DNA of 58,711 bases. It comes from a virus. Lineage: Duplodnaviria > Heunggongvirae > Uroviricota > Caudoviricetes. The DNA lies in IMG/VR virus record IMGVR_UViG_2925891887_000002. One strand, written 5' to 3'. The notes beneath the pieces are model-generated. The model had not been told where the DNA came from, did no database searches, and saw nothing but the letters and a program-made list of their open reading frames with translations. This document shows, in pieces, positions 19,329 through 34,332 of the stretch. Positions within the stretch are counted from its first letter, which is position 1. Each line of letters opens with the position of its first letter. Both the position numbers and the translations under genes were made by a program.

Positions 19329-20252
19329 TCGCCCTCCTGAGAGACGGGATTTACGTGCATCCAGTGCATCACGCATGACGGTGATCGCATCGGTACTGTT
19401 CACAAGTTCATCAGCCAGTCCGGCATCAATGGCCTCCTGACCGCTGTACACTGCAGCCTCGGTATCCAGCACAGCCTGCACGGACAGGCCGGTATATGCC
19501 GACACCTTCTGTGCAAACATCCGGCGGGTTGCATCCATCCGGGACTGCAGTGTTTCCCGGACATCATCCGGTAGATGGCTGTAGGGGTTGCCATCCACCT
19601 TATGGCTGCCGCTGTAAATCAGCGTGATTTCCACGCCCTGTTTCTCCAGCGCAGCACCGTAATTACTGTGAGCCATCATGACGCCGATGGAGCCTGTCCG
19701 GGCGGTCTGCGTGACCAGACGCCGGGAGGCGGCGCTGGCAAGCAGCTGACCTGCACTGCAGTTCATGTCGTTGGCCAGCGCCCATACCGGTTTTATGTCT
19801 CGCACACGGGCGATGATGTCAGCACAGTCAAATGCTCCCGCCACCATCCCGCCCGGTGTGTCCATATCCAGCAGAATGCCGTCCACAATCGGATCGCTGG
19901 CAGCCTGTTGCAGACGGGCGATAATGCCGTTGTAACCGGTCATCCCCGAATACGGCTGCAGCGCCCGCGTCCGGCTGACCAGCGTGCCGGACACCGGCAG
20001 CACGGCGATGCCGTTCATGACCTGATAACTGCGGGCCTGTCGTGGTCCGTCATCATCAACGGATAACGCCAGCGCCGCGGGTGCCTCTCCGGCAGTCAGG
20101 CTGTCGCCGGACACCGCATCCGCCAGGCGGCTGATCCCAAGCTGGCCTGCAAGCGCACAAAAGAAAACCCGCGCATAGGCGGGTTCAAGCATCAGCGGCT
20201 CATTAAAGGCCATACTGGCAATATGCGGGAGATTACGCAGCTCTGCTGTCAC
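18933..20252 (-). CDS. C: Capsid assembly protease C
   Basis: 439 aa from GTG (VTAELRNLPHIASMAF), lambda C match. Confidence 0.9.
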   Translation of the reverse strand: MTAELRNLPHIASMAFNEPLMLEPAYARVFFCALAGQLGISRLADAVSGDSLTAGEAPAALALSVDDDGPRQARSYQVMNGIAVLPVSGTLVSRTRALQPYSGMTGYNGIIARLQQAASDPIVDGILLDMDTPGGMVAGAFDCADIIARVRDIKPVWALANDMNCSAGQLLASAASRRLVTQTARTGSIGVMMAHSNYGAALEKQGVEITLIYSGSHKVDGNPYSHLPDDVRETLQSRMDATRRMFAQKVSAYTGLSVQAVLDTEAAVYSGQEAIDAGLADELVNSTDAITVMRDALDARKSRLSGGRMTKETQSTTVSATASQADVTGVVQATEGENASAAQPDVNAQITAAVAAENSRIMGILNCEEAHGREEQACVLAETPGMTVETARRILAAAPQSAQARSDTALDRLMQGAPAPLAAGNPASDAVNDLLNTPV

Positions 20253-21012
20253 TCTTCTCCTCCTCTGTTGATTGTCGCAGCCCGGATTCAAATGCTGCAG
20301 CCGCCCAGGCGGGCGGTTTAAGACCGGCTGCACGGCGCTCCATCGTTTCACGGACCTGCTGGGCAAAAATTTCCTGATAGTCGTCACCGCGTTTTGCGCA
20401 CTCTTTCTCGTAGGTACTCAGTCCGGCTTCTATCAGCATCACCGCTTCCTGAACTTCTTTCAGACCATCGATGGCCATACGACCGGAGCCTATCCAGTCG
20501 CAGTTCCCCCAGGCACTGCGGGCTTCCTGAAAACTGAAGCGCGCTTTTGAAGGTAACGTCACCACGCGGCGAACGATGGCCTCTTCCAGCCAGCACAGAA
20601 ACATCTGGCTCGCCTGACGGGATGCGACGAATTTTCGCCGCCCCATAAAGTACGCCCACGACTCGTTCGCACTGGCCCGTGCCGTGGAGTAGCTCATCTG
20701 GGCGTAATTCCGGGAAAGCTGCTCATACGAGACACCCAGCCCGGCAGCAATATACCGCAACAGTGACTGCTCAAACACGGAGTAGCCGTTATCCGTGTCC
20801 TGAGCCGTCTGCAGGTTCAGTGAGTCCCCCGGCATCAGGTGCGGCACTTTTGCGCCTCCCAGCCGGACCGGTGCTGCGGCGTAATACGCGGCAATTTCAC
20901 CAATCCAGCCAGTCAGCCTTTCCCGCTGCTCCTGACTGTTCGCGCCCAGAATAAAATCCATCGCTGACTGCGTATCCAGCTCACTCTCAATGGTGGCGGC
21001 ATACATCGCCTT
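20233..21012 (-). pseudogene. B: Portal protein B, C-terminal fragment
   Basis: MYAATIESELDTQSAMDF...EEEKSDSRAA matches the lambda B C-terminal half; homology stops at the satellite junction. Confidence 0.9.
21001..21012. other. Satellite att core copy, left junction (ATACATCGCCTT)
   Basis: Direct repeat of 31400..31411 with one mismatch. Confidence 0.65.
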
Positions 21013-21086
21013 TATGAAAAGACAGGAAAAAATAAAATTTAAAAACAGTACATTACGAATGCTCAGACCTATCGTTTAAAGGAGTC

Positions 21087-21107
21087 GCAATACACACTGC
21101 AATACAC
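21087..21107 (+). repeat. Two GCAATACAC direct repeats, putative integrase arm-type sites (left end)
   Basis: Same 9-mer occurs three times at the int-proximal end. Confidence 0.5.
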
Positions 21108-21194
21108 GATTATTTATAAGATGAGCGGCATCCGTCATAAAGCTGGTGGATGCTTTTTCTATGCATATATGCACAGTTTTAGTGGGCGTTAATG

Positions 21195-21218
21195 TCGATA
21201 TAGGGATCCCCATATCGA
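21195..21218. repeat. Nested palindrome TCGATATAGGGATCCCCATATCGA
   Basis: 7-bp inverted arms flanking a GGATCC core. Confidence 0.4.
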
Positions 21219-21450
21219 GATTGGATACCTGGCTTTTTTCCGGTTAACCTTTAATCAGGCTGGTGGGCTTTACCTGTTTTGTATGAGTGGTCATCATGAC
21301 CATGTCATAACAAAAACCCCATATTCGTGGTTTTTCTGTGTCGGGCTATTCTGTCGTTGCTGTGCTGATTTGGCTGGTGGGCTGAATCATCATTACGGCG
21401 ATGCAGCTATGTAGACGTTCCGGCCTCCTCAAATTGAGGATTGTGGAAGA

Positions 21451-21810
21451 ATCAATGGGTTAGTCTTACTTTCCCGACATCCCCCAATGGGGGTTTTCGA
21501 AACAATCAATAGCTTAGGCTTACTTCCCCGATTTCCTGCATTGCAGGTTTTCGAAATAATCAATGGGTTAGGCCATCGTGCAATTTTGCACTTTGCCAGC
21601 CAGCGCAATGTCGCGTTATCAGTCCTCAGATGTGAGGGATGTAGCCAGCTTTTCCCCCAGTGGGGGATATCCAGCACCGACGGCTTAACTGTGCGTGCCA
21701 GCACAAGGTAGCCTTGAACTACTTACTGCATCCCATCTTACAGGCCGTGCCTTCCTGCTTAACTTTTTGCAATGCAACAAGTCAGCCAGCGCAATTTTGC
21801 GTTATCGGGA
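21451..21810. repeat. Array of 54-bp tandem repeat units and 12 to 14-bp GC-rich palindromes, several followed by T-runs
   Basis: Units at 21451, 21505, 21559; palindromes at 21481, 21535, 21578, 21654, 21790. Confidence 0.7.
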
Positions 21811-21821
21811 ATATCAGCAAG

Positions 21822-22103
21822 TTACCGCCGCAATCGTTCCGGCTTCTTCCACTGGTAAGTATTTTTCGCGCTCTCCCTCCGTTGTTGAGAACGGCGACGA
21901 TATGCCAGCAACTCAAGGACTCTTGTTCGTATGTTGCGCATATCCACGCCGTTAAGCTCAATACCGTCACGGCGCATCACCTCAGCCACTACACGCACAT
22001 AATTATCTGCGGTCACGCTGTCCGGCTGCGTGGCCTGTTCGTCATGCTGCTTGCTGATTCCACAAGCACGGCGGATTAATCGCAGTATTTCGGATTCAGT
22101 CAT
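21822..22103 (-). CDS. Hypothetical protein (satellite)
   Basis: 93-aa ORF just downstream of the terS-like gene, same strand. Confidence 0.4.
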   Translation of the reverse strand: MTESEILRLIRRACGISKQHDEQATQPDSVTADNYVRVVAEVMRRDGIELNGVDMRNIRTRVLELLAYRRRSQQRRESAKNTYQWKKPERLRR

Positions 22104-22114
22104 AGCGTACTACG

Positions 22115-22642
22115 TTACTTATCTTTATTCGGCTGCAACTTATCCGGTACGTTTCCGGCAGTTTCCATCAGATAATCGGACAGCATCAGCGGTATGTTTT
22201 CGTCAAGTTTTGCGCATGCGTTACGGGCTCTGATAACTTCTTTTTTCAGTCCATCCAGCATAGACGGCTTCATGTCGGGAAACTTCCTTGTCATGGCAAG
22301 CGGCAGGCTGTCCATGATTGAAGAAATCTGACTCGCTAGTTTTGAAATCGCGTAGATGCAAAACTTTGTATCAATCACCTCGCCGCGTTCGCGCTCGTTT
22401 TTAAGTTCCTGCGCTTCCGCCTGGGCCGTCATTAATCTGATTCTTACGCGTAAAAGTTCATCATCATCAATCTCGCCTTTGTCGTCTGTAATCTGGTTAA
22501 TTGCATTGCTAACCCGATTGTCTATTACGCTGGCAACATCATAAAACGCCTCGCGGCCTTTACGTTCAACGGGAGTCACTCCCCACTTGTCGAACGCTGT
22601 CGCACTTACACGGCAGCTTTGCGCCATGTTTTTTTTGTTCAT
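22115..22642 (-). CDS. Small terminase (Nu1)-like protein, candidate packaging-redirection factor
   Basis: C-terminal two thirds align with Nu1 at 34333..34878 (RLxxAQAxAQELKN..); N-terminus divergent; start chosen at MNKKNMAQ. Confidence 0.7.
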   Translation of the reverse strand: MNKKNMAQSCRVSATAFDKWGVTPVERKGREAFYDVASVIDNRVSNAINQITDDKGEIDDDELLRVRIRLMTAQAEAQELKNERERGEVIDTKFCIYAISKLASQISSIMDSLPLAMTRKFPDMKPSMLDGLKKEVIRARNACAKLDENIPLMLSDYLMETAGNVPDKLQPNKDK

Positions 22643-22790
22643 CAGGTGCGATTTCATCAATATCCCCACTTAAGTAATGTTTCAGGTTGGTGTATTGGCT
22701 TTATCTTTTCCTTTTTATTCATAGAGATAGAGCGAACAACAAAACCACCACCAGCACCCGAAAAAGGCTCATAAATAGCGAAAACCCGCG

Positions 22791-22802
22791 AGGTCGCCGC
22801 CC
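22791..22802. other. Satellite cosN (12-nt cohesive-end sequence)
   Basis: AGGTCGCCGCCC with lambda-like flanks on the cosQ side, divergent on the cosB side. Confidence 0.8.
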
Positions 22803-22858
22803 CGTAGCCTACCGGATCGCCGGAAAGGACCCGCCAGCCAGAACGGGCCCTAATTTCA

Positions 22859-23263
22859 TCAACCAATCAACTTATAGCGACCATCCCGTGCATTGCGACG
22901 TACACGCTCAATCTTGAGGCATAGCGCCGCATCTGGCTTTTTTGGGACAGGTACGCGGCAATATTCAGAAGATCGAGGAATATTGTTTATCCAGTCGATC
23001 ACTTCACTTAAATACCAGGCCTTACGCCCTTCCGTAACCTGTACGCGTTCGGGGAACTCTCCGCGAGCCTCAAGGTTTAGCAATGTGCGACGGCTAAGGG
23101 TAGTAAGTTCCATCACCTGATTCATATCAACAAGGCGTTCACTTAAACGCATTTTGTCAGCAATAGCCTTTAATTCCTCTACTGCTGGATCCGGATACAT
23201 CATTTCGGCAATTGGCTTAAGGTCATTGTAATGATTCTGCATTGTATCCCCCTTTACACACAA
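22859..23263 (-). CDS. AlpA-like HTH protein with N-terminal extension
   Basis: 134-aa ORF; C-terminal half has an AlpA/excisionase-like motif. Confidence 0.5.
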   Translation of the reverse strand: MCVKGDTMQNHYNDLKPIAEMMYPDPAVEELKAIADKMRLSERLVDMNQVMELTTLSRRTLLNLEARGEFPERVQVTEGRKAWYLSEVIDWINNIPRSSEYCRVPVPKKPDAALCLKIERVRRNARDGRYKLIG

Positions 23264-23595
23264 GCCAGCGGCTGAACAGAAATACCTGAGCCAACAAACG
23301 CGGCAACCTTTGCCGACAGTTCTTTTACAGACTCAGGCCAGTTCAGAGCATCAACATTTAAAACACCTGTCTTATAAACCTGTGCCTGTGTTTTTTTCGC
23401 TGTGTCGATTTGTACAGCGGAAACATAAACCGCTTTACCTACGCTCGAACCATCCCATACCACCAGTGCACCTGTTGCATCTTCCTGCATCAGTGGCGTA
23501 AATGCAGGAATTACCCCTTTATTAGCTGAAAATATCCCCAGCGTAGTCACCAGTGCTTCAGTGCCAGCCATGAGTTCAGTGTAATGAGTAGCCAT
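23254..23595 (-). CDS. Head decoration protein D homologue (satellite)
   Basis: 113 aa; conserved blocks shared with D at 18591..18923 (TPLM..WDG, K(S/T)G..WPE). Confidence 0.7.
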   Translation of the reverse strand: MATHYTELMAGTEALVTTLGIFSANKGVIPAFTPLMQEDATGALVVWDGSSVGKAVYVSAVQIDTAKKTQAQVYKTGVLNVDALNWPESVKELSAKVAAFVGSGISVQPLACV

Positions 23596-23604
23596 TGCTC
23601 CCCC

Positions 23605-24651
23605 TTAGCCAATGCGAACGGTAACAAAACGATTGATGCGGGCCGGTATTGGCTGTGGTGCTGAATGTGTCTGCACATATTCAATAGCCGGATCACCAGG
23701 CACAATATAGTTTTTCGGTGCAAGTTCGGCTTTAGTCAGCCCCATTCGGATTAGCTCCGGATCCTGAATACCGCCATAGGCGACAATCCCCTGAAGAGCC
23801 GTATTGCCAAGCACCATCAAATCAGGATCAAGGAAATGTTTTTCTGTTCCGTCCTCGTCGGTATAACGCCCGCTGTAAACAACAATCGCAACATCGCCCA
23901 TATACCCTTTAAAACTCACCGAATCACCAAGGTCTTTAAGGGCCGTTTCCAGTTCGGAATTAGAACCACGACGGGTATCCAAAGCCTCTTTTATCGCTCT
24001 GAATGAACGGTATTTCTTCCATACATTACCACCCATAATGATGATATTAGTGACGCCCTCACTAAATTCTGCGTAGCTCTCAATATCATCATTTGGATCA
24101 AAAGTTTCTTTATCCTTACCTGACCACTCAGTACCGCCAGACTGAGTGATGATATTTTGTGGTTTTATATTCCAGTCCAGCTCATAACGTTCAATACCAT
24201 CGCCCTCAATGATATTTTTCCCCGTTGTGATTGCCTGAACAGCAAGCCATTCAATACGTGCACGAATAGCTTTAGCCTGATTTACAATCGCCTGTTTAAC
24301 TTTAATATTACGCGCCCCAAAAGCATTGTATTGCTCAGGTGACACACCAGCAGGGCGCACAGCTAACTTATTTGGATCAATGCTGCTTTTCGGCTTCATA
24401 TAACCTGGACGAATTGTTTTTGATTCGTATCCCTCATCTCGTGAAACTTTACTGCCCACCATAGGAGAGCAAAACGCCGCGATCGGGATATTTGGATCGT
24501 CGATCGTATCAAGAATAATGTCTCTCGATTCAAACATTACCGAGCGAGTGAAAAACAAACTGGTAAACAACGCATTTAATTTTTTTTGCACATCTTCAGC
24601 ATTAGCCACCTGCACAAGCTGTGTAGGCGAATATAAATCAACCATACGCAT
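23605..24651 (-). CDS. Major capsid protein E homologue (satellite)
   Basis: Aligns with E along its length (ITQSGGTEWS, DPxDDIE, LDTRRGSNSELETA, AIVVYSG); start chosen at MRMVDLY; ORF extends upstream to 24819. Confidence 0.75.
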   Translation of the reverse strand: MRMVDLYSPTQLVQVANAEDVQKKLNALFTSLFFTRSVMFESRDIILDTIDDPNIPIAAFCSPMVGSKVSRDEGYESKTIRPGYMKPKSSIDPNKLAVRPAGVSPEQYNAFGARNIKVKQAIVNQAKAIRARIEWLAVQAITTGKNIIEGDGIERYELDWNIKPQNIITQSGGTEWSGKDKETFDPNDDIESYAEFSEGVTNIIIMGGNVWKKYRSFRAIKEALDTRRGSNSELETALKDLGDSVSFKGYMGDVAIVVYSGRYTDEDGTEKHFLDPDLMVLGNTALQGIVAYGGIQDPELIRMGLTKAELAPKNYIVPGDPAIEYVQTHSAPQPIPARINRFVTVRIG

Positions 24652-24862
24652 CCTCTTTGCATTCATTAAAAATAATTGTGGATATATGCTATCACCGATA
24701 TTTGTCATGCGAATACATGCAACCGAGTGCAATGTTGTATAAAGTTTTGGGATAACAACTTCAGCGCGGATAATTAGTGTTAATATCTTCACTCCCTTTG
24801 GTCGGGATTTATGTAGCATGCCGGAAAATTTATTTTTTTCCGGCCTTTTTTATTGGCAATAT

Positions 24863-25312
24863 TTAAAACGGAATATCATCTCCCCATTGCTCATTTTCTC
24901 CCACTGGTGGATGGCTTCCTTGCTGATCTGCCTGTTGTTTTGCTCTGTTCAGTGCGTCAGTAGCCTGACCCTGTTGACCTTTTTTGCCGCCCGGTCGCAC
25001 CGTTCGCGCACTGATTACGCTGTCTGCGATAACCTGCCAGCCCTGCCGCGTTTCACCGTTCTGGCCTGTCCACTGTCTTACCTGCATGTTACCCGCCACG
25101 CTCACCAGTTCGCCTTTGTGGTGTTTTGCCAGTGCGTCGGCCTGTCTGCCAAACGCCAGGACGGATAACCACATCGTCGCCGTTCCGTCATCTGCCTGGC
25201 TGCACGGAAGGGGGACCGCCATACTAGCCATCGTCATTTGTGTACCCTTGCTGGTGGTCTTTAACTGCGGGTCAGCCACCAGCCGCCCGTAAGCCGCTAT
25301 CTGTGCTGTCAT
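24863..25312 (-). CDS. ssb: Single-stranded DNA-binding protein
   Basis: 149 aa, OB-fold-like, ends with the SSB acidic tip DDIPF. Confidence 0.7.
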   Translation of the reverse strand: MTAQIAAYGRLVADPQLKTTSKGTQMTMASMAVPLPCSQADDGTATMWLSVLAFGRQADALAKHHKGELVSVAGNMQVRQWTGQNGETRQGWQVIADSVISARTVRPGGKKGQQGQATDALNRAKQQADQQGSHPPVGENEQWGDDIPF

Positions 25313-25560
25313 GCTGTCTGCTCTCCAGTTTTAACGTTGATGGTTGTCACCTGTTCCGCTTCGGCAATCTCCCGTTCTGTCAGCGTGGCAAAGTTTGCCG
25401 CCGTCGTGGTCATGAATGCGCTTATCAGTTCGGGGTGTGCTTTCGCGTATCCTTCCCCAGCGTGGCGGTCTATCGTTCTGATTGCCACCTTTAAGGCGTG
25501 CTCTGTCATGTCTAACGCTTTATATTTTGGCGCTGTCTTATCTCTGGTTTTTCTGGTCAT
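25309..25560 (-). CDS. Hypothetical protein (satellite)
   Basis: 83-aa ORF between ori and ssb. Confidence 0.4.
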   Translation of the reverse strand: MTRKTRDKTAPKYKALDMTEHALKVAIRTIDRHAGEGYAKAHPELISAFMTTTAANFATLTEREIAEAEQVTTINVKTGEQTA

Positions 25561-25765
25561 TCCTCACTGCTCCCCACTTTTACTACCCACTTTTTGAAAT
25601 TACCCAACGTCTCCCCACTTCTTTTTTTTGTGATTCTAACGTGATGTTTTTCAATGTGTTTTTTATTCCCCACTTTTTGGGGTATATACAGGTGGGAAAG
25701 TGGGGAATCACGTTTCAATTTTGTTAAATTCCCCACACTCCCCACTTTTACTACCCACTTTTTAC
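25561..25765. repeat. Putative satellite replication origin with CCCCACT iterons
   Basis: At least eight CCCCACT(T) motifs in both orientations plus AT-rich stretches, directly 3' of the rep gene. Confidence 0.6.
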
Positions 25766-27177
25766 AGTGGGCGCACGTCATCACCGTCAATAGCAATAAC
25801 GCCATCACCTTCCAGCTTGTACAGCCAGCGCCGGAAGTGTTTCATCTCATACCCCAGCTTTTTCATATCATCGCGCAACAACGGAATAGTGCATTTATCT
25901 CCGCGCTGTGTGCGTGAACGGATACAGCCCCATAGCGCGGCATGATTCTCCGTCTTGTTCCCGGCTTCCTCGATGCGCTCCAGTTCAACGGGTGGGCGCG
26001 GCTTATCCACAACAACCAGCGACGTGATTAACTCCCCGTCAGTGTCGGTAAAAAGCTCCACCACACGTAAATCGTATGCGGCCTCTTTCAGTTCCTCCGC
26101 GTCCTTCATTTTTGTGCAGGAGATAACCAGGGCTTCACTGTCTGCACCTTCACGGCGAATACGGTATTCAGCGTCCAGAGATGCACGAAATGCACTGGAA
26201 CCACGCGCCCCCTTTGTTTCATCCTTGCCGGAATGGTGAACCACCAGCACCGTGGCCCCTGTGCGGCGTTTCAGTTCGTCACATCCACGGATAAACGCCC
26301 CCATATCCCGCGCGTCATTTTCATCATTACCGCCAAAGCAACGCGCCAGCGTATCAAGAATAATCATGCGTACCGGTTTACCCGTTTCCCGTTCAACCTG
26401 GCGGGAAGCGATGACCATTTCATCAACATCAAGCGGGACTGCCGGAAAAATCGGGCGGTTTACCAGGTACAGATTTTCCACCCGTTCATCATTAACGATT
26501 TCCCATGCCTTGATACGGCGGGGGACACCAATGCCACCTTCACCGACAACATACATCACCGAACCATGCGCCACCCTGCGGCCTCCCCAGTGACGGCCAG
26601 TGGCAACATGACACGCCCAGGAACACGCGAGGAACGATTTATAGGAACCGCTCGCGCCGTATGTGCTGCACAATGAATTAGCCGGAATCACGCCCTTAAC
26701 GACATAATCAAGCTGTGTGTCGTACCCTGCAGATCCAATGCTCATTGGTAGCGTGGTTTTTCGCTGGCTGTATTGCTCGTCAGTAAGTATTTCCCCGCGC
26801 TCTGCCTGTTCGCGGATCCGTTGCAGGTAGTCGTGCCAGTTCTCCAGCTTCTGGCTGTGCATTCCATCAGGGTAATAATTCGCATCCCGTACACCTGCCG
26901 CCGCCAGCTTTTGCCCGATAGCATTAATATTTGACGGCTTGATGTGGCCTGCCTTGTACAGCCGGACACAATAGCGACCATCGTCGATAATTTTCAGGTC
27001 TGCCAGTTCGTCAAGCTGGCTGTCTCCCAGCCATACAGGCGGGACGTTATCACCAGCAAGTCGCCCGTCCTGTTCCTGCCACTGTTTCGCGTGCGCCCAG
27101 GCATCACTACCCGCAAAAATAATGACTTCGGTCATTTTGTCGTGTGGCTGTTTTTTTAAGTTCGGTGCCAGTTTCAT
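25762..27177 (-). CDS. Replication initiator ATPase (RepA/AAA_25-like helicase with primase-like N-terminus)
   Basis: 471 aa; Walker A GASGSYKS; ILDTLARCF and LVVHHSGK motifs. Confidence 0.7.
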   Translation of the reverse strand: MKLAPNLKKQPHDKMTEVIIFAGSDAWAHAKQWQEQDGRLAGDNVPPVWLGDSQLDELADLKIIDDGRYCVRLYKAGHIKPSNINAIGQKLAAAGVRDANYYPDGMHSQKLENWHDYLQRIREQAERGEILTDEQYSQRKTTLPMSIGSAGYDTQLDYVVKGVIPANSLCSTYGASGSYKSFLACSWACHVATGRHWGGRRVAHGSVMYVVGEGGIGVPRRIKAWEIVNDERVENLYLVNRPIFPAVPLDVDEMVIASRQVERETGKPVRMIILDTLARCFGGNDENDARDMGAFIRGCDELKRRTGATVLVVHHSGKDETKGARGSSAFRASLDAEYRIRREGADSEALVISCTKMKDAEELKEAAYDLRVVELFTDTDGELITSLVVVDKPRPPVELERIEEAGNKTENHAALWGCIRSRTQRGDKCTIPLLRDDMKKLGYEMKHFRRWLYKLEGDGVIAIDGDDVRPL

Positions 27178-27473
27178 TTTTTGCCCCTGAATGCGTTAAT
27201 CATGTTTTTCATTTTCTGAATATTTGCCCGTGCCTTTGCGTTGCTGGTGGGCTGTTTGCGTGGTGTGGCCTGTATCAGTGAAAAATCACGCCGGAACTGA
27301 TAAGCAGGCATCACGCAGTCATAGCCGTACCCATCACGGCGGTAAGTAACGCACCGCCCCGCCACGCTTTTAATCGTTACCGTGCCACCGTAGTTATCCC
27401 GGAAAATATCGCCGGGGCGGATTTCAGGCCGAGGGAGACCACTGGCAGTAAAGCCAGAATTTTTCTGTTTCAT
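27174..27473 (-). CDS. Hypothetical protein
   Basis: 99-aa ORF. Confidence 0.4.
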   Translation of the reverse strand: MKQKNSGFTASGLPRPEIRPGDIFRDNYGGTVTIKSVAGRCVTYRRDGYGYDCVMPAYQFRRDFSLIQATPRKQPTSNAKARANIQKMKNMINAFRGKK

Positions 27474-27479
27474 GTTTTT

Positions 27480-27698
27480 TTACTCCAGAGGCAGATTTTT
27501 AGCGGCGAGTTCAATATCAGATGTCAGAGAAACCTGTGTATTTGCCAGGTCTAACAACAAAGAAATAAGAATTTCCTCTCTGCTATCGGATTCATCGGTG
27601 CTAAGGCTGTTCATCCACATATTGACGACTTCCCTGATTTTTTTCGCAGAGTGCAGGGCTTCAAATGCCAGGTCTTCAATATCATGTTTATTTCGCAT
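27480..27698 (-). CDS. Hypothetical small protein
   Basis: ORF from internal Met MRNKHDIEDL. Confidence 0.3.
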   Translation of the reverse strand: MRNKHDIEDLAFEALHSAKKIREVVNMWMNSLSTDESDSREEILISLLLDLANTQVSLTSDIELAAKNLPLE

Positions 27699-27900
27699 AA
27701 TCGCCCCCGCGTAACTGGTCTGCACTAACACCCGATTTAGTGAGCATTTCAGAAAATCCCGCAAGAGTGCTGATAAATTCGTTTTCCATTAAACGGCACT
27801 GGCATTTAACCCGGCCTTTTTCCAGATACACCAGTACGCGCCACGTATAATCTGACGGCACATTCAGCACTACAGATAAGTGCGCTTCATTATTATTCAT
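27688..27900 (-). CDS. Hypothetical small protein
   Basis: 70-aa ORF. Confidence 0.35.
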   Translation of the reverse strand: MNNNEAHLSVVLNVPSDYTWRVLVYLEKGRVKCQCRLMENEFISTLAGFSEMLTKSGVSADQLRGGDYAK

Positions 27901-28129
27901 GGCTCACCACCTCCATATCAGCCATGATAATTTTGCTGGCCTCATTCAGTGCCATATCAGCACTAAGTTGCATTACAGCCAGTGAATGAGGAACGAAAGC
28001 CCCGGCATATTCTGTTTCACTGGTAGCGTGCTTATGCGCCCTGTCCGCGATAACAGAAATATCAATCAGCGCATCAATCAGTGTTTTGATTGCTTCGGCG
28101 GCTGCGTCCGGACGGGTGTTATTGCACAT
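27893..28129 (-). CDS. Hypothetical small protein
   Basis: 78-aa ORF. Confidence 0.35.
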   Translation of the reverse strand: MCNNTRPDAAAEAIKTLIDALIDISVIADRAHKHATSETEYAGAFVPHSLAVMQLSADMALNEASKIIMADMEVVSHE

Positions 28130-28325
28130 GGTGCACCCCCTGACGAATACGGGCGGCGAATACCATCACGCAGCCAGCCGGTGATTGCTGACGGGCTTCC
28201 TGTTCGCTGGTGGCCTCAATGGTAATCACGCGCGGTTGTGCCGTACTCAGGGCGATAAAACGCCAGATGTATTTATTCAGGTTGTGCGAGCCCCGCCCTT
28301 GCGGGTGTGTGGTATGATTTCTCAT
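28119..28325 (-). CDS. Hypothetical small protein, first gene of the leftward satellite operon
   Basis: 68-aa tail of a longer spurious ORF, starting at ATG 28323..28325 next to the operator region. Confidence 0.35.
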   Translation of the reverse strand: MRNHTTHPQGRGSHNLNKYIWRFIALSTAQPRVITIEATSEQEARQQSPAGCVMVFAARIRQGVHHVQ

Positions 28326-28422
28326 AGCTACCTCGATACTGTTGCTATCGTTGGTGGTTAGAAGCCCGGTTAGTGTTAGCGCACTGCCGGGTTTCGTCGT
28401 TTCTGCACCTTGCACCAACAAG

Positions 28423-28474
28423 GTGTTGAACACCAATTTAAACCCAGGTGTTGAACACGTCAAGTGTTGAACAC
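28423..28474. promoter_or_regulatory. Three direct repeats of GTGTTGAACAC in a divergent promoter region (putative operators)
   Basis: Repeats at 28423, 28448 and 28464 between divergent small genes. Confidence 0.55.
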
Positions 28475-28524
28475 TTGTTTTTTTTCCTGCATACTGCATT
28501 TGTTTTTTGTGAGGGGTACACAAC

Positions 28525-28704
28525 ATGGCGACAAAAGCAGTAAACGCAAAATCACAAACAGTTGCGGCAAGGGTTCCGCATGAAGTTATGAACAATGTTG
28601 AGGCGGTAAAAATGCCTGGTGAAAGTACAGGGCAGTTTGTAACAGCAGCATTAAAGCGAGAAGTTGAATACCGCCAGCGACGCAAGGCTAAAGAGCAAGA
28701 ATAA
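28525..28704 (+). CDS. Small putative DNA-binding regulator
   Basis: 59-aa ORF (not in the track) with GAGGGG Shine-Dalgarno 8 nt upstream. Confidence 0.45.
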   Translation: MATKAVNAKSQTVAARVPHEVMNNVEAVKMPGESTGQFVTAALKREVEYRQRRKAKEQE

Positions 28705-28761
28705 TCACTATCAGCGCTGTGGTGTGAGGTACTCCGGCGCATTGCTTTACAGGTCGGCACT

Positions 28762-28971
28762 ATGAGCAAAAAATACCTATCCACTGAAGAGATTTTCGCA
28801 GAACAACGAAGATTGCTTTTACAGAGCATTGTTGCACGCCAGAAAGAAAAGGCACACGCTAAACAAATGCCACCAAATACAGAACCAGCGCCTACAAAAT
28901 TTGCGCTTGATGAGTTTCTCAATAAACAGCCCCGGGTAATGAAAGCTAACAGGAACCGCCCACCAGGCTGA
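28762..28971 (+). CDS. Hypothetical small protein
   Basis: 69-aa ORF downstream of the regulator. Confidence 0.4.
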   Translation: MSKKYLSTEEIFAEQRRLLLQSIVARQKEKAHAKQMPPNTEPAPTKFALDEFLNKQPRVMKANRNRPPG

Positions 28972-29067
28972 TCACATTGCCCACCAGCCGCAAATGTGGC
29001 ATTGTTGGTGATGCTTTTGTTTTCCCTTGTTCCCACTGGCGACCCTTTTGCGGTCGCCTTTGTTTTG

Positions 29068-29646
29068 TCACTGAATGCGGTTACCAAAGTAAAACTCAGG
29101 CTGATATTCACGTATCAGCGTTTTTTCTTCTTCCTCCAGCTCACGCTTTTTGCGCTTACATGCCTGTAGCTCCCTCCCCTTCTCGCTGGCACTTATTTGA
29201 TATTGCTCTTTACGGCGGGAAAAATCCTGTAATGCACCCCACGGGATACCATAAGCCCCCGTTTTTCTGATACCCGGTATCACATTTCTGAATACCCAGT
29301 TACTGAAACGATGAGCAAATGTGCCAGGCGTCGTTGCTTTGCGGCTGCGGGCTATTAGTTTGTAGAAACCTGACTCAGAGATAATTCTCATATTCTGATT
29401 TCCTCCTGGGGTGTAAGTTAAATTTACTCCCTTTTCATCATCATCAAGCATCTGCAACGCCGTACGCGAATTGGTTAGTTCCAGCACAGCACAAACATCT
29501 TTTGCAACAAACCACGGATCGCCGTTCAGATACACCACACGAACGTTCACACTATCAAAGCGCAGAACGACGAGATCACGAATATCGCAGAATTTTTTCA
29601 CTGGACGAGCGTACCCCTTGCCCGTCACGGCAATATTTTTATTCAT
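29068..29646 (-). CDS. Bro-N domain protein (antirepressor-like)
   Basis: 192 aa; N-terminal motif VRVVYLNGDPWFVAKDV typical of Bro-N. Confidence 0.65.
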   Translation of the reverse strand: MNKNIAVTGKGYARPVKKFCDIRDLVVLRFDSVNVRVVYLNGDPWFVAKDVCAVLELTNSRTALQMLDDDEKGVNLTYTPGGNQNMRIISESGFYKLIARSRKATTPGTFAHRFSNWVFRNVIPGIRKTGAYGIPWGALQDFSRRKEQYQISASEKGRELQACKRKKRELEEEEKTLIREYQPEFYFGNRIQ

Positions 29647-29663
29647 CGCGTTTTTACCTTATA

Positions 29664-29690
29664 GACAAAAAACCCCTCGTGATGAGGGGC
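29664..29690 (-). terminator. Rho-independent terminator downstream of alpA
   Basis: CCCCTC..GAGGGG hairpin followed by a T-run on the minus strand. Confidence 0.55.
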
Positions 29691-29702
29691 ATTATTTACT
29701 GG

Positions 29703-29960
29703 TTATTGCTGTTTTGTTTTTCCAGGTTTCCATCCAGGATGCCACTCACCACGGATCCATGCCTGAACCTCTGAAAGTCGATACCCTGCAGCACGTTCAC
29801 CGATCTTGATACGTCGCGGGAATTTACCTGCCTGCTCCATTTTCCAGCGTGTTGAGTTTGCCAGCGTGGTAAGTGCTATGCACTCTTTTTCACGAATGAA
29901 CCGATCAATGTCCTTCATTGTGCGCAAATCGTTTTCATCAACAAGAGAATAAATTGCCAT
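29703..29960 (-). CDS. alpA: AlpA-family regulator / excisionase
   Basis: 85 aa, AlpA motif, directly downstream of int. Confidence 0.75.
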   Translation of the reverse strand: MAIYSLVDENDLRTMKDIDRFIREKECIALTTLANSTRWKMEQAGKFPRRIKIGERAAGYRLSEVQAWIRGEWHPGWKPGKTKQQ

Positions 29961-29961
29961 A

Positions 29962-31203
29962 TCACACCACCTCTTTATTAAGCTCGATAACGTTGTTGTT
30001 AAATCCTGCTATCGTATTAAGGTAATTAACCCATATATTAAGCACCTCAAGTTTTTTCTTTATATGCCTGCTTTTATTGTAAACACCAGCAACCCCTTTC
30101 ACTTTATGACCTAAAAGAAGTTCGACAATATAAGGATCCGCCCCCATATCATTAAGCGTAGTGGAAAATGTGCGCCTGAAATCATGTATGCACCACAAGC
30201 CATTAGTATCATGACCAAGACGCCTGCATATTCTGTTTGCAGCCCCTGTTATTGTCGCCCTTTGCAAAGCACAACCGACAACATAACCGCGATTTTTTGT
30301 TTCTGCGTAAAGATTAACGATCCATTGTTTTATTCCGTCAGGAACAGGCCTTACTATAGCCTCCTTGTTTTTGCTGTGCTCTTTTGGGACTGTCCATACC
30401 CAGTTTTTTAAATCCCATTCGTCCCAGGTGGATAGCCTCGCCTCCTGCTGTCGGCAACCAAACACCAGGCAGATAACCATTATTCTTCGGTTATATATTG
30501 ATGACAGAGTTAGCAAATTATTACCGTAAGCATAAGACCATACATCAGCGGTTTCATTGATATTAAGAACGCGATCCCTTATACCGGATGAGCGCCCGAC
30601 ATAACTTACGTTAATATCTCCAAAGGGATCGCACGCGATGTATTGCCTGACGCGACAAAAACGCAACGCCTGTTTGATATCAAGAAAAATTGCACCAGAC
30701 ATAACAGGCGCATTTTTTTTGATCCTGTCAAAGACGGTAAGCCATGTGTGTAATTTGCACTGTTCTATAGCCATATCACCGATATAGGGGAAGATATGCT
30801 TTTCAAATCGTTTTATTAAATATTCATGCTCTTTTCTGGCTGTTGTGGCGTGATTGTCGTACCAGTAAAACAGCGCATCCCTTACGGTCACTGGTTGCAT
30901 AGTTTTTTCGGCAGCAAGTTTTATTTGCCTGCGGGGGTCCAGATTTTCAGCCAGCCATTCACGGCACTGATCACGCATGCGCCTGGCCGTTGCAAGAGAC
31001 ATGTCAGGATAGCGACCAAGTGTAAGCCATACCGGAGGGGATTCCCTGCCACCAAGACGATAGTAAAAAACAAAGCTGATCCCCCCAACCATGCTTACAC
31101 GCACAGACAACCCGCGCCCATCCGCTATTGTTTTTTGTTTGTCCTGCCGTTTTCCGACAAGACTCTTTAACAGTTTGTCACTGAGTTTGTTTTCAATAGC
31201 CAT
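29962..31203 (-). CDS. int: Tyrosine integrase (P4/PICI-type)
   Basis: 413 aa; C-terminal HDFRRTF and LLGH..Y catalytic motifs. Confidence 0.85.
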   Translation of the reverse strand: MAIENKLSDKLLKSLVGKRQDKQKTIADGRGLSVRVSMVGGISFVFYYRLGGRESPPVWLTLGRYPDMSLATARRMRDQCREWLAENLDPRRQIKLAAEKTMQPVTVRDALFYWYDNHATTARKEHEYLIKRFEKHIFPYIGDMAIEQCKLHTWLTVFDRIKKNAPVMSGAIFLDIKQALRFCRVRQYIACDPFGDINVSYVGRSSGIRDRVLNINETADVWSYAYGNNLLTLSSIYNRRIMVICLVFGCRQQEARLSTWDEWDLKNWVWTVPKEHSKNKEAIVRPVPDGIKQWIVNLYAETKNRGYVVGCALQRATITGAANRICRRLGHDTNGLWCIHDFRRTFSTTLNDMGADPYIVELLLGHKVKGVAGVYNKSRHIKKKLEVLNIWVNYLNTIAGFNNNVIELNKEVV

Positions 31204-31223
31204 TAAAAGCCCTCAAGAGATTT

Positions 31224-31274
31224 GCAATACACACCCATCCCGATCGCCAATTTGCAATACACATTGCAATACAC
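31224..31274 (+). repeat. Three GCAATACAC direct repeats, putative integrase arm-type sites (int-proximal)
   Basis: Copies at 31224, 31254 and 31266. Confidence 0.5.
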
Positions 31275-31399
31275 AAAACCGCGAAAAACTGGAAGGGTGA
31301 TGAACGGTCATCAAAAGCATGGAAAACGACATTCCAGACGCAGCAAGGGTTTCAGTGGAGTTGGCGAACGATGCGGGCAACTACGGTGAGATGATAGAC

Positions 31400-34332
<2,933 letters not shown>

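Follow-up and report, generated by a model that had tools for sequence, protein, structure and literature searches.

An array of short repeats directly behind a helicase gene raises the question of whether it is the place where a phage satellite starts copying itself, and of which protein would read it. The array occupies positions 25561-25764 of the window, which here means the whole 58,711-nucleotide stretch of DNA that was analysed; this DNA is 100% identical to the chromosome of E. coli strain 22AR0322. Sequence analysis confirms the array and reveals a conserved layout. The array is swapped as a unit with the helicase core and predicted winged helix of the protein Rep, and one base of its repeats co-varies with one residue of this protein. 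The segment is very probably the vegetative replication origin of a PICI-like satellite, recognised by the product of the gene directly upstream. An iteron origin belonging to the upstream rep gene was the core of the original prediction, and everything that such an origin predicts at the level of sequence (position, conserved architecture, joint swap and co-variation) was borne out.

The satellite island and its repeat array

The island extends from about 21016 to 31400 (10.4 kb), and the genes around the array all lie on the minus strand. Read along that strand, their order is integrase, HTH regulator, Bro-N, Icd-like, small ORFs, DUF4222, rep, the gap with the array, an 83-aa ORF, SSB, lambda-E-type major capsid, decoration protein, excisionase-like HTH and small terminase (terS). 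The features that matter most here are the following:

29962-31203, minus strand: tyrosine integrase
27174-27473, minus strand: DUF4222 gene, overlapping the start of rep and kept upstream of both RepA-type and primase-type initiators
25762-27177, minus strand: rep, encoding a 471-aa RepA-family helicase (Pfam AAA_25, E 3e-44), annotated as 'helicase RepA family protein'
25561-25764, minus strand: whole putative origin, an intergenic array that starts in the rep TAA (25762-25764) and ends just before the ATG of the 83-aa ORF
25309-25560, minus strand: 83-aa ORF (phrog_1231, function unknown), always the next gene after the putative origin
24863-25312, minus strand: satellite SSB (Pfam SSB, E 1e-16; phrog_44), a probable accessory replication factor

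By size and gene content, this element is a PICI-like phage satellite. PICIs are recognised by a length of about 10-15 kb, an integrase, a regulator, a rep-ori module, packaging or interference genes and a lack of tail and lysis genes, and this is what the island presents, with neither tail nor lysis genes among the annotated genes of its 10.4 kb. No portal, protease or terL gene is annotated inside the island either, and its head and packaging set consists of major capsid, decoration protein and terS; since portal, protease and large terminase are missing from this set, the island is not a full capsid-forming PICI (cf-PICI). The encoded lambda-E-type major capsid, D-like decoration protein and TerS (23254-24819 and 22115-22669) make it neither a classical PICI nor a full cf-PICI, and the surrounding prophage has E/D-type head genes of its own. 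Searches of Pfam and NCBIfam gave no match for the 83-aa ORF. Close relatives of the island are present in IMG/VR viral contigs of about 9-13 kb, many of which are apparently predictions from isolate genomes.

The setting of the island is unusual in that the whole satellite is inserted within the portal gene of a lambdoid prophage (20233-21015 and 31400-32233), an arrangement for which the literature search returned no description. The two flanking portal halves are pseudogenes in the PGAP annotation, and the junctions near 21003-21015 and 31401-31413 carry an imperfect 13-nt direct repeat, AAGGCGAT(T/G)TATG. Because the satellite sits in this gene, the portal gene would be whole only once the satellite has been excised. 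Two portal fragments also flank sister islands in many E. coli genomes. Both ends of the island contain further repeats. At the terS-proximal end (21426-21571), three 38-nt direct repeats recur with a period of 54 nt, each opening with a short palindrome (TCCTCAAATTGAGGA and variants), and these are candidate packaging or recombination sites. Beside the integrase end (31220-31275), ATTTGCAATACACA occurs three times, with one less exact copy at the other end (21083-21096); these copies are candidate arm-type sites of the integrase.

The gap between rep and the 83-aa ORF measures 201 bp, or 204 nt with the rep stop codon. It contains 11 copies of the consensus AAAGTGGGKA, of which nine are direct and two inverted relative to rep; two of the direct copies are degenerate, reading TTGGG (25603-25607) and GTGAG (25563-25567). 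Read in the direction of rep, from 25764 to 25561, the array consists of TAAAAAGTGGGTAGTAAAAGTGGGGAGTGTGGGGAA, 23 nt, TTCCCCACTTTCCCACCTGTATATACCCCAAAAAGTGGGGAA, a 47-nt A-rich stretch, AAGTGGGGAGACGTTGGGTAATTTCAAAAAGTGGGTAGTAAAAGTGGGGAGCAGTGAGGA and then the ATG of the next gene. Its parts are listed below:

25732-25760, minus strand: left iteron cluster, three direct copies (AAAAAGTGGGTAG, TAAAAGTGGGGAG and TGTGGGGAA on that strand) with cores at 25754-25758, 25741-25745 and 25732-25736
25665-25708: central element, a perfect 12-nt inverted repeat, ATTCCCCACTTT / AAAGTGGGGAAT, at 25665-25676 and 25697-25708 (100% complementary)
25621-25667: A/T-rich spacer of 47 nt (77% A+T, A-runs on the rep strand) that separates the right iteron set from the central one
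25563-25620, minus strand: right iteron cluster, five direct copies with cores at 25614-25618, 25603-25607, 25586-25590, 25573-25577 and 25563-25567
25570-25595 and 25738-25763: two copies of an exact 26-nt direct repeat of two tandem iterons, CTCCCCACTTTTACTACCCACTTTTT

The original prediction had counted at least eight CCCCACT(T) motifs in both orientations. The two orientations were found as described, while exact CCCCACT occurs five times (four on the plus strand, one on the minus strand) and CCCACTT seven times, so that 'at least eight' is correct only for the core CCCAC/GTGGG. This core is strongly clustered, with 10 occurrences in the 204 nt from 25564 and at most three in any other stretch of this length across the 58.7-kb window (Poisson P ~3e-12, or ~8e-10 when corrected for the number of windows). 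The duplicated 25-bp block placed at 25572 and 25739 also exists, with an exact repeat length of 26 nt; the second 25-bp copy starts at 25740 rather than 25739, and the final base of the block is not the same in the two copies (G versus A). A start of the array at the rep stop codon had also been predicted, and the A-run of the first iteron does start within the TAA (25762-25764), as it does in all relatives. The left cluster likewise stands right after the stop codon in E. coli, Xenorhabdus, Kluyvera, Pantoea and others. At the opposite edge, the last copy of the right cluster (GTGAG) overlaps the ribosome-binding site of the 83-aa ORF.

The base composition and arrangement of the array resemble those of known origins. 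In PICIs of Gram-positive and Gram-negative bacteria, the origin lies directly 3' of the initiator gene and comprises two iteron sets around an A/T-rich region (Fillol-Salom et al. 2018, PMC6092414). The position directly behind rep agrees with this layout, as had been predicted, and the left and central iterons (25669-25760) together with the right iterons (25563-25620) surround the 47-nt spacer of 77% A+T. The array as a whole is 61% A+T and the window 50%. The AT-rich spacers of the original prediction are thus recovered at 25621-25667, a stretch that includes some of the least stable 30-mers of the region; the three least stable ones of 25300-26000 all fall within 25621-25688. The spacer is a candidate unwinding region, whose instability is moderate (top 3% of 30-mers in the window), which counts against the origin reading. 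The central inverted repeat encloses the second inverted core (25692-25696; the other one is at 25700-25704) and a conserved TATATA (25683-25688), and the central direct core lies at 25669-25673. The opposed copies (25692-25704 inverted, 25669-25673 direct) enclose TATATA and not the long spacer, which is flanked by co-directional copies. The central element is one candidate site of opposed Rep loading and first melting.

Scans of the gap revealed no sigma-70 promoter on either strand, no intrinsic terminator, no DnaA box or IHF site within one mismatch, no GATC and no Rfam match. Single-strand folding of the array is modestly better than that of shuffled sequences (z = -2.5), an excess that is explained by the inverted iterons and therefore does not represent independent evidence. 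An inverted CCCACT in the last rep codons (25766-25770) was considered as a further iteron and rejected because it does not switch to CTCAC in islands of the GTGAG type.

The Rep protein and its predicted DNA-binding domain

Rep appears to consist of three parts, an N-terminal alpha/beta domain (residues ~10-125), a RecA-type AAA_25 core (152-320) with a GASGSYKS P-loop-like motif that includes K180, and a predicted C-terminal winged helix (410-471). The family phrog_2850 matches the protein over its full length and is labelled 'unknown function' in PHROGs. Pfam assigns AAA_25 alone, with no SF3 (AAA+, D5/DUF5906-type) helicase domain and no match to Rep_3 (PF01051), and neither Pfam nor NCBIfam gives a match for the N-terminal or C-terminal domain. 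No recognisable primase domain was found in Rep, a point that counts against the origin reading as far as priming is concerned. Among solved structures, RSF1010 RepA (1g8y) alone resembles the motor in sequence, and this similarity is weak (E 0.004, residues 153-326).

In the full-length AlphaFold model, the motor is poor (pLDDT <50 for 154-178 and 316-407), while residues ~10-125 and 410-471 are modelled confidently. A Foldseek search with this model returned weak RecA-like matches (RadA/Rad51) among noise, as the motor is poorly modelled, and a domain-only model was therefore needed. The model of residues 392-471 reaches pLDDT >90 and has the order helix-helix-helix-strand-strand with a two-stranded wing. 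Its leading matches in the PDB are mostly winged-helix domains, including the MCM C-terminal WH, DtxR, LexA, IclR/PcaR, Fur, the MCM8 WH and the DnaD N-domain, with probability ~0.9, TM 0.55-0.67 and weak E-values of 0.1-0.4, as expected for a domain of 60 residues. Two features of this domain bear on the proposed recognition of the repeats:

25765-25950, minus strand: coding region of the predicted winged helix (Rep residues 410-471)
25837-25839, minus strand: codon of His447 (CAC), directly before the predicted recognition helix (448-457)

The N-terminal part of Rep has a separate distribution. Residues 1-118 (26824-27177) and DUF4222 are common to islands with an initiator of the P4-type primase/DUF5906 kind, at 77% DNA and 55-75% protein identity, and the N-terminal domain partially matches phrog_864, 'DNA primase'. 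This module is present in both types of islands, which means that two unrelated helicase motors carry the same N-terminal module.

Joint exchange and co-variation of Rep and the repeats

A natural swap connects the repeats to Rep. In a sister island at the same insertion site (L093, E. coli JNE23-011), the place of RepA is taken by a P4-type primase family protein of 584 aa. Between the two islands, identity is 97.6% over 20800-25561 and ends at the base before the array, that is, at the distal edge of the putative origin. They are unrelated over 25562-26823, and homology returns at 26824 with 77% identity over the Rep N-terminal domain and DUF4222, rising to 99.8% over 28968-31600 in the region of the integrase-proximal HTH regulator. 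The sister island has its own gap of 348 bp, with TCTACC/GGTAGA repeats in both orientations. A different initiator accompanied by different iterons on a shared backbone indicates that the iterons belong to rep, and that helicase core, winged helix and iterons travel as one cassette:

25562-26823, minus strand: exchangeable replication cassette (helicase core, winged helix and iterons)

Moreover, the 83-aa ORF is shared with the sister island despite the other iterons there and thus is not the iteron reader; in the same way, the 83-aa ORF, SSB and DUF4222 cannot be the specificity determinants.

The swap also bears on the idea that the repeats are operators through which a transcription factor different from Rep controls the orf83-ssb-capsid operon. 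The intergenic location of the array, directly ahead of a gene start, and the two HTH regulators encoded by the island would suit this function. The backbone outside 25562-26823 (HTH regulator 99.8%, downstream part 97.6%) is nevertheless shared with a sister island that has other repeats, no protein segment apart from the Rep helicase core and C-terminal domain varies along with these repeats, one Rep residue (447) predicts the repeat base, and no promoter-like site is present on either strand. Control by such a factor is accordingly very unlikely. Still less credible is a packaging signal (pac/cos or TerS binding sites) or a chance or low-complexity feature. The satellite has its own small terminase and terminase sites are often repeated, yet terS lies 3 kb away, and the repeats change together with rep, while terS keeps 97.6% identity to its counterpart in the sister island; the repeat set at 21426-21571, beside the packaging genes, is a better candidate for this role. 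Chance is ruled out by the clustering statistics of the core.

The same architecture is widespread. Among 5,426 complete E. coli genomes, 557 contain the 2.25-kb rep-ori-orf83 query at ≥80% coverage, with DNA identity of 82-100%. In all eight E. coli loci that were aligned, the gap is about 200 bp long and its elements follow in the same order; CTGTATA and the A-runs TAAAAAA, AAACA and AAAA are invariant in this alignment, and in four of the eight loci all copies, including the inverted ones, read GTGAG instead of GTGGG. A scan of one genome per species added 80 loci, with Rep identity of 50-71%, in Xenorhabdus, Citrobacter, Kluyvera, Kosakonia, Pantoea, Serratia, Pectobacterium, Morganella, Erwinia and others. 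Across Enterobacterales, Enterobacter included, Rep homologues of 50-100% identity are followed by the same architecture. Nearly all loci follow one plan: direct copies at the stop codon (one to three), a gap of about 25 nt, inverted copies (one or two), TATAT(A/G), a single direct copy, a second gap of about 50 nt and a final set of two to five direct copies. The order of inverted copy, TATAT(A/G) and direct copy recurs across genera.

One relative in IMG/VR deviates from this plan. In L100 (IMGVR_UViG_2541047774_000008), whose Rep is 99% identical, the 168 bp between the 26-nt repeats are lost, so that rep and the 83-aa ORF are separated by a single copy. This locus is a natural deletion of the putative origin through recombination between the two 26-nt repeats.

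The correspondence between Rep and its repeats can be narrowed to a single position. In a co-variation scan of the last 110 residues of Rep across 71 loci, residue 447, which lies in the motif K-x-[FLM]-x-[RK]-W-L, was the only perfect predictor column, with mutual information equal to the type entropy (1.335 bits). His (11 loci) and Lys (28) both accompany GTGGG, Asn (25) accompanies GTGAG, and Ser (7) accompanies GTGCG. After the rule was set, it was applied to 80 independent IMG/VR loci, which gave His-G in 37 and Asn-A in 42; the one exception is the locus with the deleted origin described above. A fifth state, Gly, was found in three loci from Enterobacter and Citrobacter with GTGCG/ATGCG repeats and the same layout. 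Altogether, the rule (His/Lys with G, Asn with A, Ser/Gly with C at base 4) holds in 153 of 153 callable loci. His or Lys with G and Asn with A are common preferences in protein-DNA contacts.

In order to count the changes, a neighbour-joining tree of the C-terminal domain was built without the column of residue 447, and parsimony on this tree gave seven residue changes and six base changes. Close sister pairs are found in opposite states (L003/L006, and the window with L005). Some of these switches may reflect recombination of a linked block and not independent events, and residue 447 may be a direct read-out of base 4 or may be linked to the true determinant. What the pattern shows is that Rep and the repeats are matched in specificity; the repeats may act in initiation or in another Rep-dependent function. 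A related observation comes from three loci of Xenorhabdus and an Enterobacteriaceae MAG (L011, L020 and L032), which are of the Asn type with ATGAG cores and an unchanged K-N-F-x-R-W motif; because the motif is unchanged, a second determinant elsewhere in Rep must read base 1.

The other Rep-dependent function just mentioned has to be weighed against initiation. The array could be a Rep-binding locus involved in copy-number control, handcuffing, incompatibility or a transcription roadblock toward ssb-capsid, with the true origin located elsewhere, either inside rep, as in lambda O and N15 repA, or at a distant second site, as in P4 ori/crr. In favour of this, co-variation by itself demonstrates no more than a match between Rep and the repeats, the ribosome-binding site of the 83-aa ORF is overlapped by the last iteron, and P4 uses two separate iteron loci. 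Against this stands the lack of any second iteron cluster in the window, where other 204-nt stretches contain at most three cores. Two copies of AAGTGGGGA near terS (22582 and 22665) were examined as a second Rep site and rejected because both are identical in the sister island with a different initiator. Opposed iterons around TATATA, together with an A/T-rich spacer between direct sets, also form the layout of an origin. A purely non-initiating locus thus appears improbable, though less so than operators or a packaging signal, and the reading of the array as the satellite's origin is the one followed below.

Putative initiation and comparison with known replicons

According to the proposed mechanism, Rep would be an initiator and helicase in one polypeptide, combining a RecA-type (RepA/AAA_25) motor with a C-terminal winged helix, in which His447, just before the recognition helix, would read base 4 of the core GTG-G-G. 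After induction and excision of the satellite, Rep would bind the opposed copies that enclose TATATA as well as the direct iterons in both the left and the right cluster. Rep hexamers would then assemble, and the duplex would open at TATATA or at the adjacent 47-nt A/T-rich spacer. The helicase would load itself without DnaA or a separate loader; the unwound strands would be coated by the satellite SSB, and synthesis would be carried out by the host primase and polymerase.

The closest architectural parallel is found in SaPIs. SaPI Rep is a helicase that uses a C-terminal winged helix to read 6-12 iterons located directly behind the rep gene; the initiator is itself both helicase and iteron reader, and so it loads itself (PMC9371898). 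The origins of SaPI1, SaPIbov1 and SaPI5 of Staphylococcus aureus resemble the array studied here in their location 3' of rep, two iteron sets and an A/T-rich centre; they also have opposed copies, which in the present array enclose TATATA and not the long spacer. The initiators are alike in being helicases with a C-terminal winged helix, which is predicted here, with recognition suggested by the co-variation of residue 447 and base 4. The motor is different, as SaPI Rep has an SF3 AAA+ motor and the present Rep a RecA-type AAA_25/RepA motor, and so are the hosts, Gram-positive S. aureus in one case and a Gram-negative bacterium in the other. No sequence relationship between Rep and SaPI Rep is detectable.

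In P4, the alpha protein combines helicase and origin recognition in one polypeptide, and its C-terminal DNA-binding domain reads repeated short sites. Rep shares with it the single polypeptide, the C-terminal DNA-binding domain (predicted here) and the satellite replicon. However, P4 alpha carries a primase and an SF3-type helicase and requires two separated iteron loci (ori and crr), whereas here one locus and no recognisable primase domain are found. As far as sequence can tell, Rep is an architectural analogue, and not a homologue, of SaPI Rep or P4 alpha.

Experimental evidence for a Gram-negative satellite origin comes from EcCICFT073, for which rep- and ori-dependent maintenance of a plasmid was shown (PMC6092414). 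Its pri-rep-ori region shares with the present one the E. coli host, the kind of satellite, the origin 3' of the initiator and the two iteron sets around an A/T-rich region, and a module of the EcCICFT073 kind occupies, in the sister island, the same slot as the cassette studied here. The EcCICFT073 initiator is apparently a P4-type primase-helicase, similar to the DNA primase/DUF5906 protein of the sister island, and only the N-terminal ~130 residues are shared with Rep. The tested origin therefore apparently belongs to a primase-type initiator, and this counts against the origin reading for the present array.

Plasmid initiators represent further points of comparison. RSF1010 (IncQ) RepA, from the same Pfam family AAA_25, has detectable similarity to the motor of Rep. 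This protein of 279 aa has no origin-binding domain, and the IncQ iterons are read by a separate RepC; in Rep, by contrast, the motor is joined to an N-terminal domain and to a predicted winged helix. In pPS10, F, R6K and pSC101, a winged-helix Rep reads direct iterons next to an A/T-rich region. These initiators are non-helicase proteins of the Rep_3 family that need DnaA boxes and loading of the host DnaB, unlike the AAA_25 protein and the gap without a DnaA box described here.

A more far-reaching reading, which we favour by a little, is that the side chain of residue 447 alone sets base 4 of the iteron, giving at least three orthogonal Rep-ori classes that would convert into one another by one substitution and a concerted change of about 10 repeats. 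Under the same slightly favoured reading, these proteins would be self-loading initiator-helicases of RecA type that are widespread in enterobacterial satellites, and would represent an SF4-like counterpart, arisen by convergence, of the SF3 initiators of SaPI and P4.

The rep-ori layout was already known for PICIs, and for this reason current understanding is not overturned; what is new is the residue-to-base rule and the exact boundaries of the cassette. The literature search found no description of the origin of an AAA_25-type satellite Rep, although an overlap with the iterons in Fig. 2a of PMC6092414 is possible. The array would mark the site where the satellite starts copying itself, and the cassette 25562-26823 distinguishes this satellite from otherwise near-identical islands. 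As phrog_2850 is common and yet carries the label mentioned above, this family would be given a function, together with a recognition rule that can be tested. From the rule it can be predicted which satellites might compete or cross-replicate within one cell, and the rule suggests single-residue swaps for orthogonal replicons, of which the Rep family, if the rule is true, would be a ready source.

A further idea, that the specificity classes diversified against incompatibility of co-resident satellites, is unsupported by base 4 alone, since pairs of the same class occur within one genome, as in Xenorhabdus, in Pantoea dispersa (L039/L058) and in Pectobacterium (L060/L061). A 16,971-bp record from K. 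pneumoniae (L089, CP018459.1, pKp_Goe_795-4), deposited as a circular plasmid, encodes a Rep of 58% identity and is satellite-like; besides this AAA_25-type Rep, it has genes for integrase, capsid, adaptor and terminase. The record represents either a satellite that exists as an episome or an excised form that entered the assembly, and is compatible with episomal replication.
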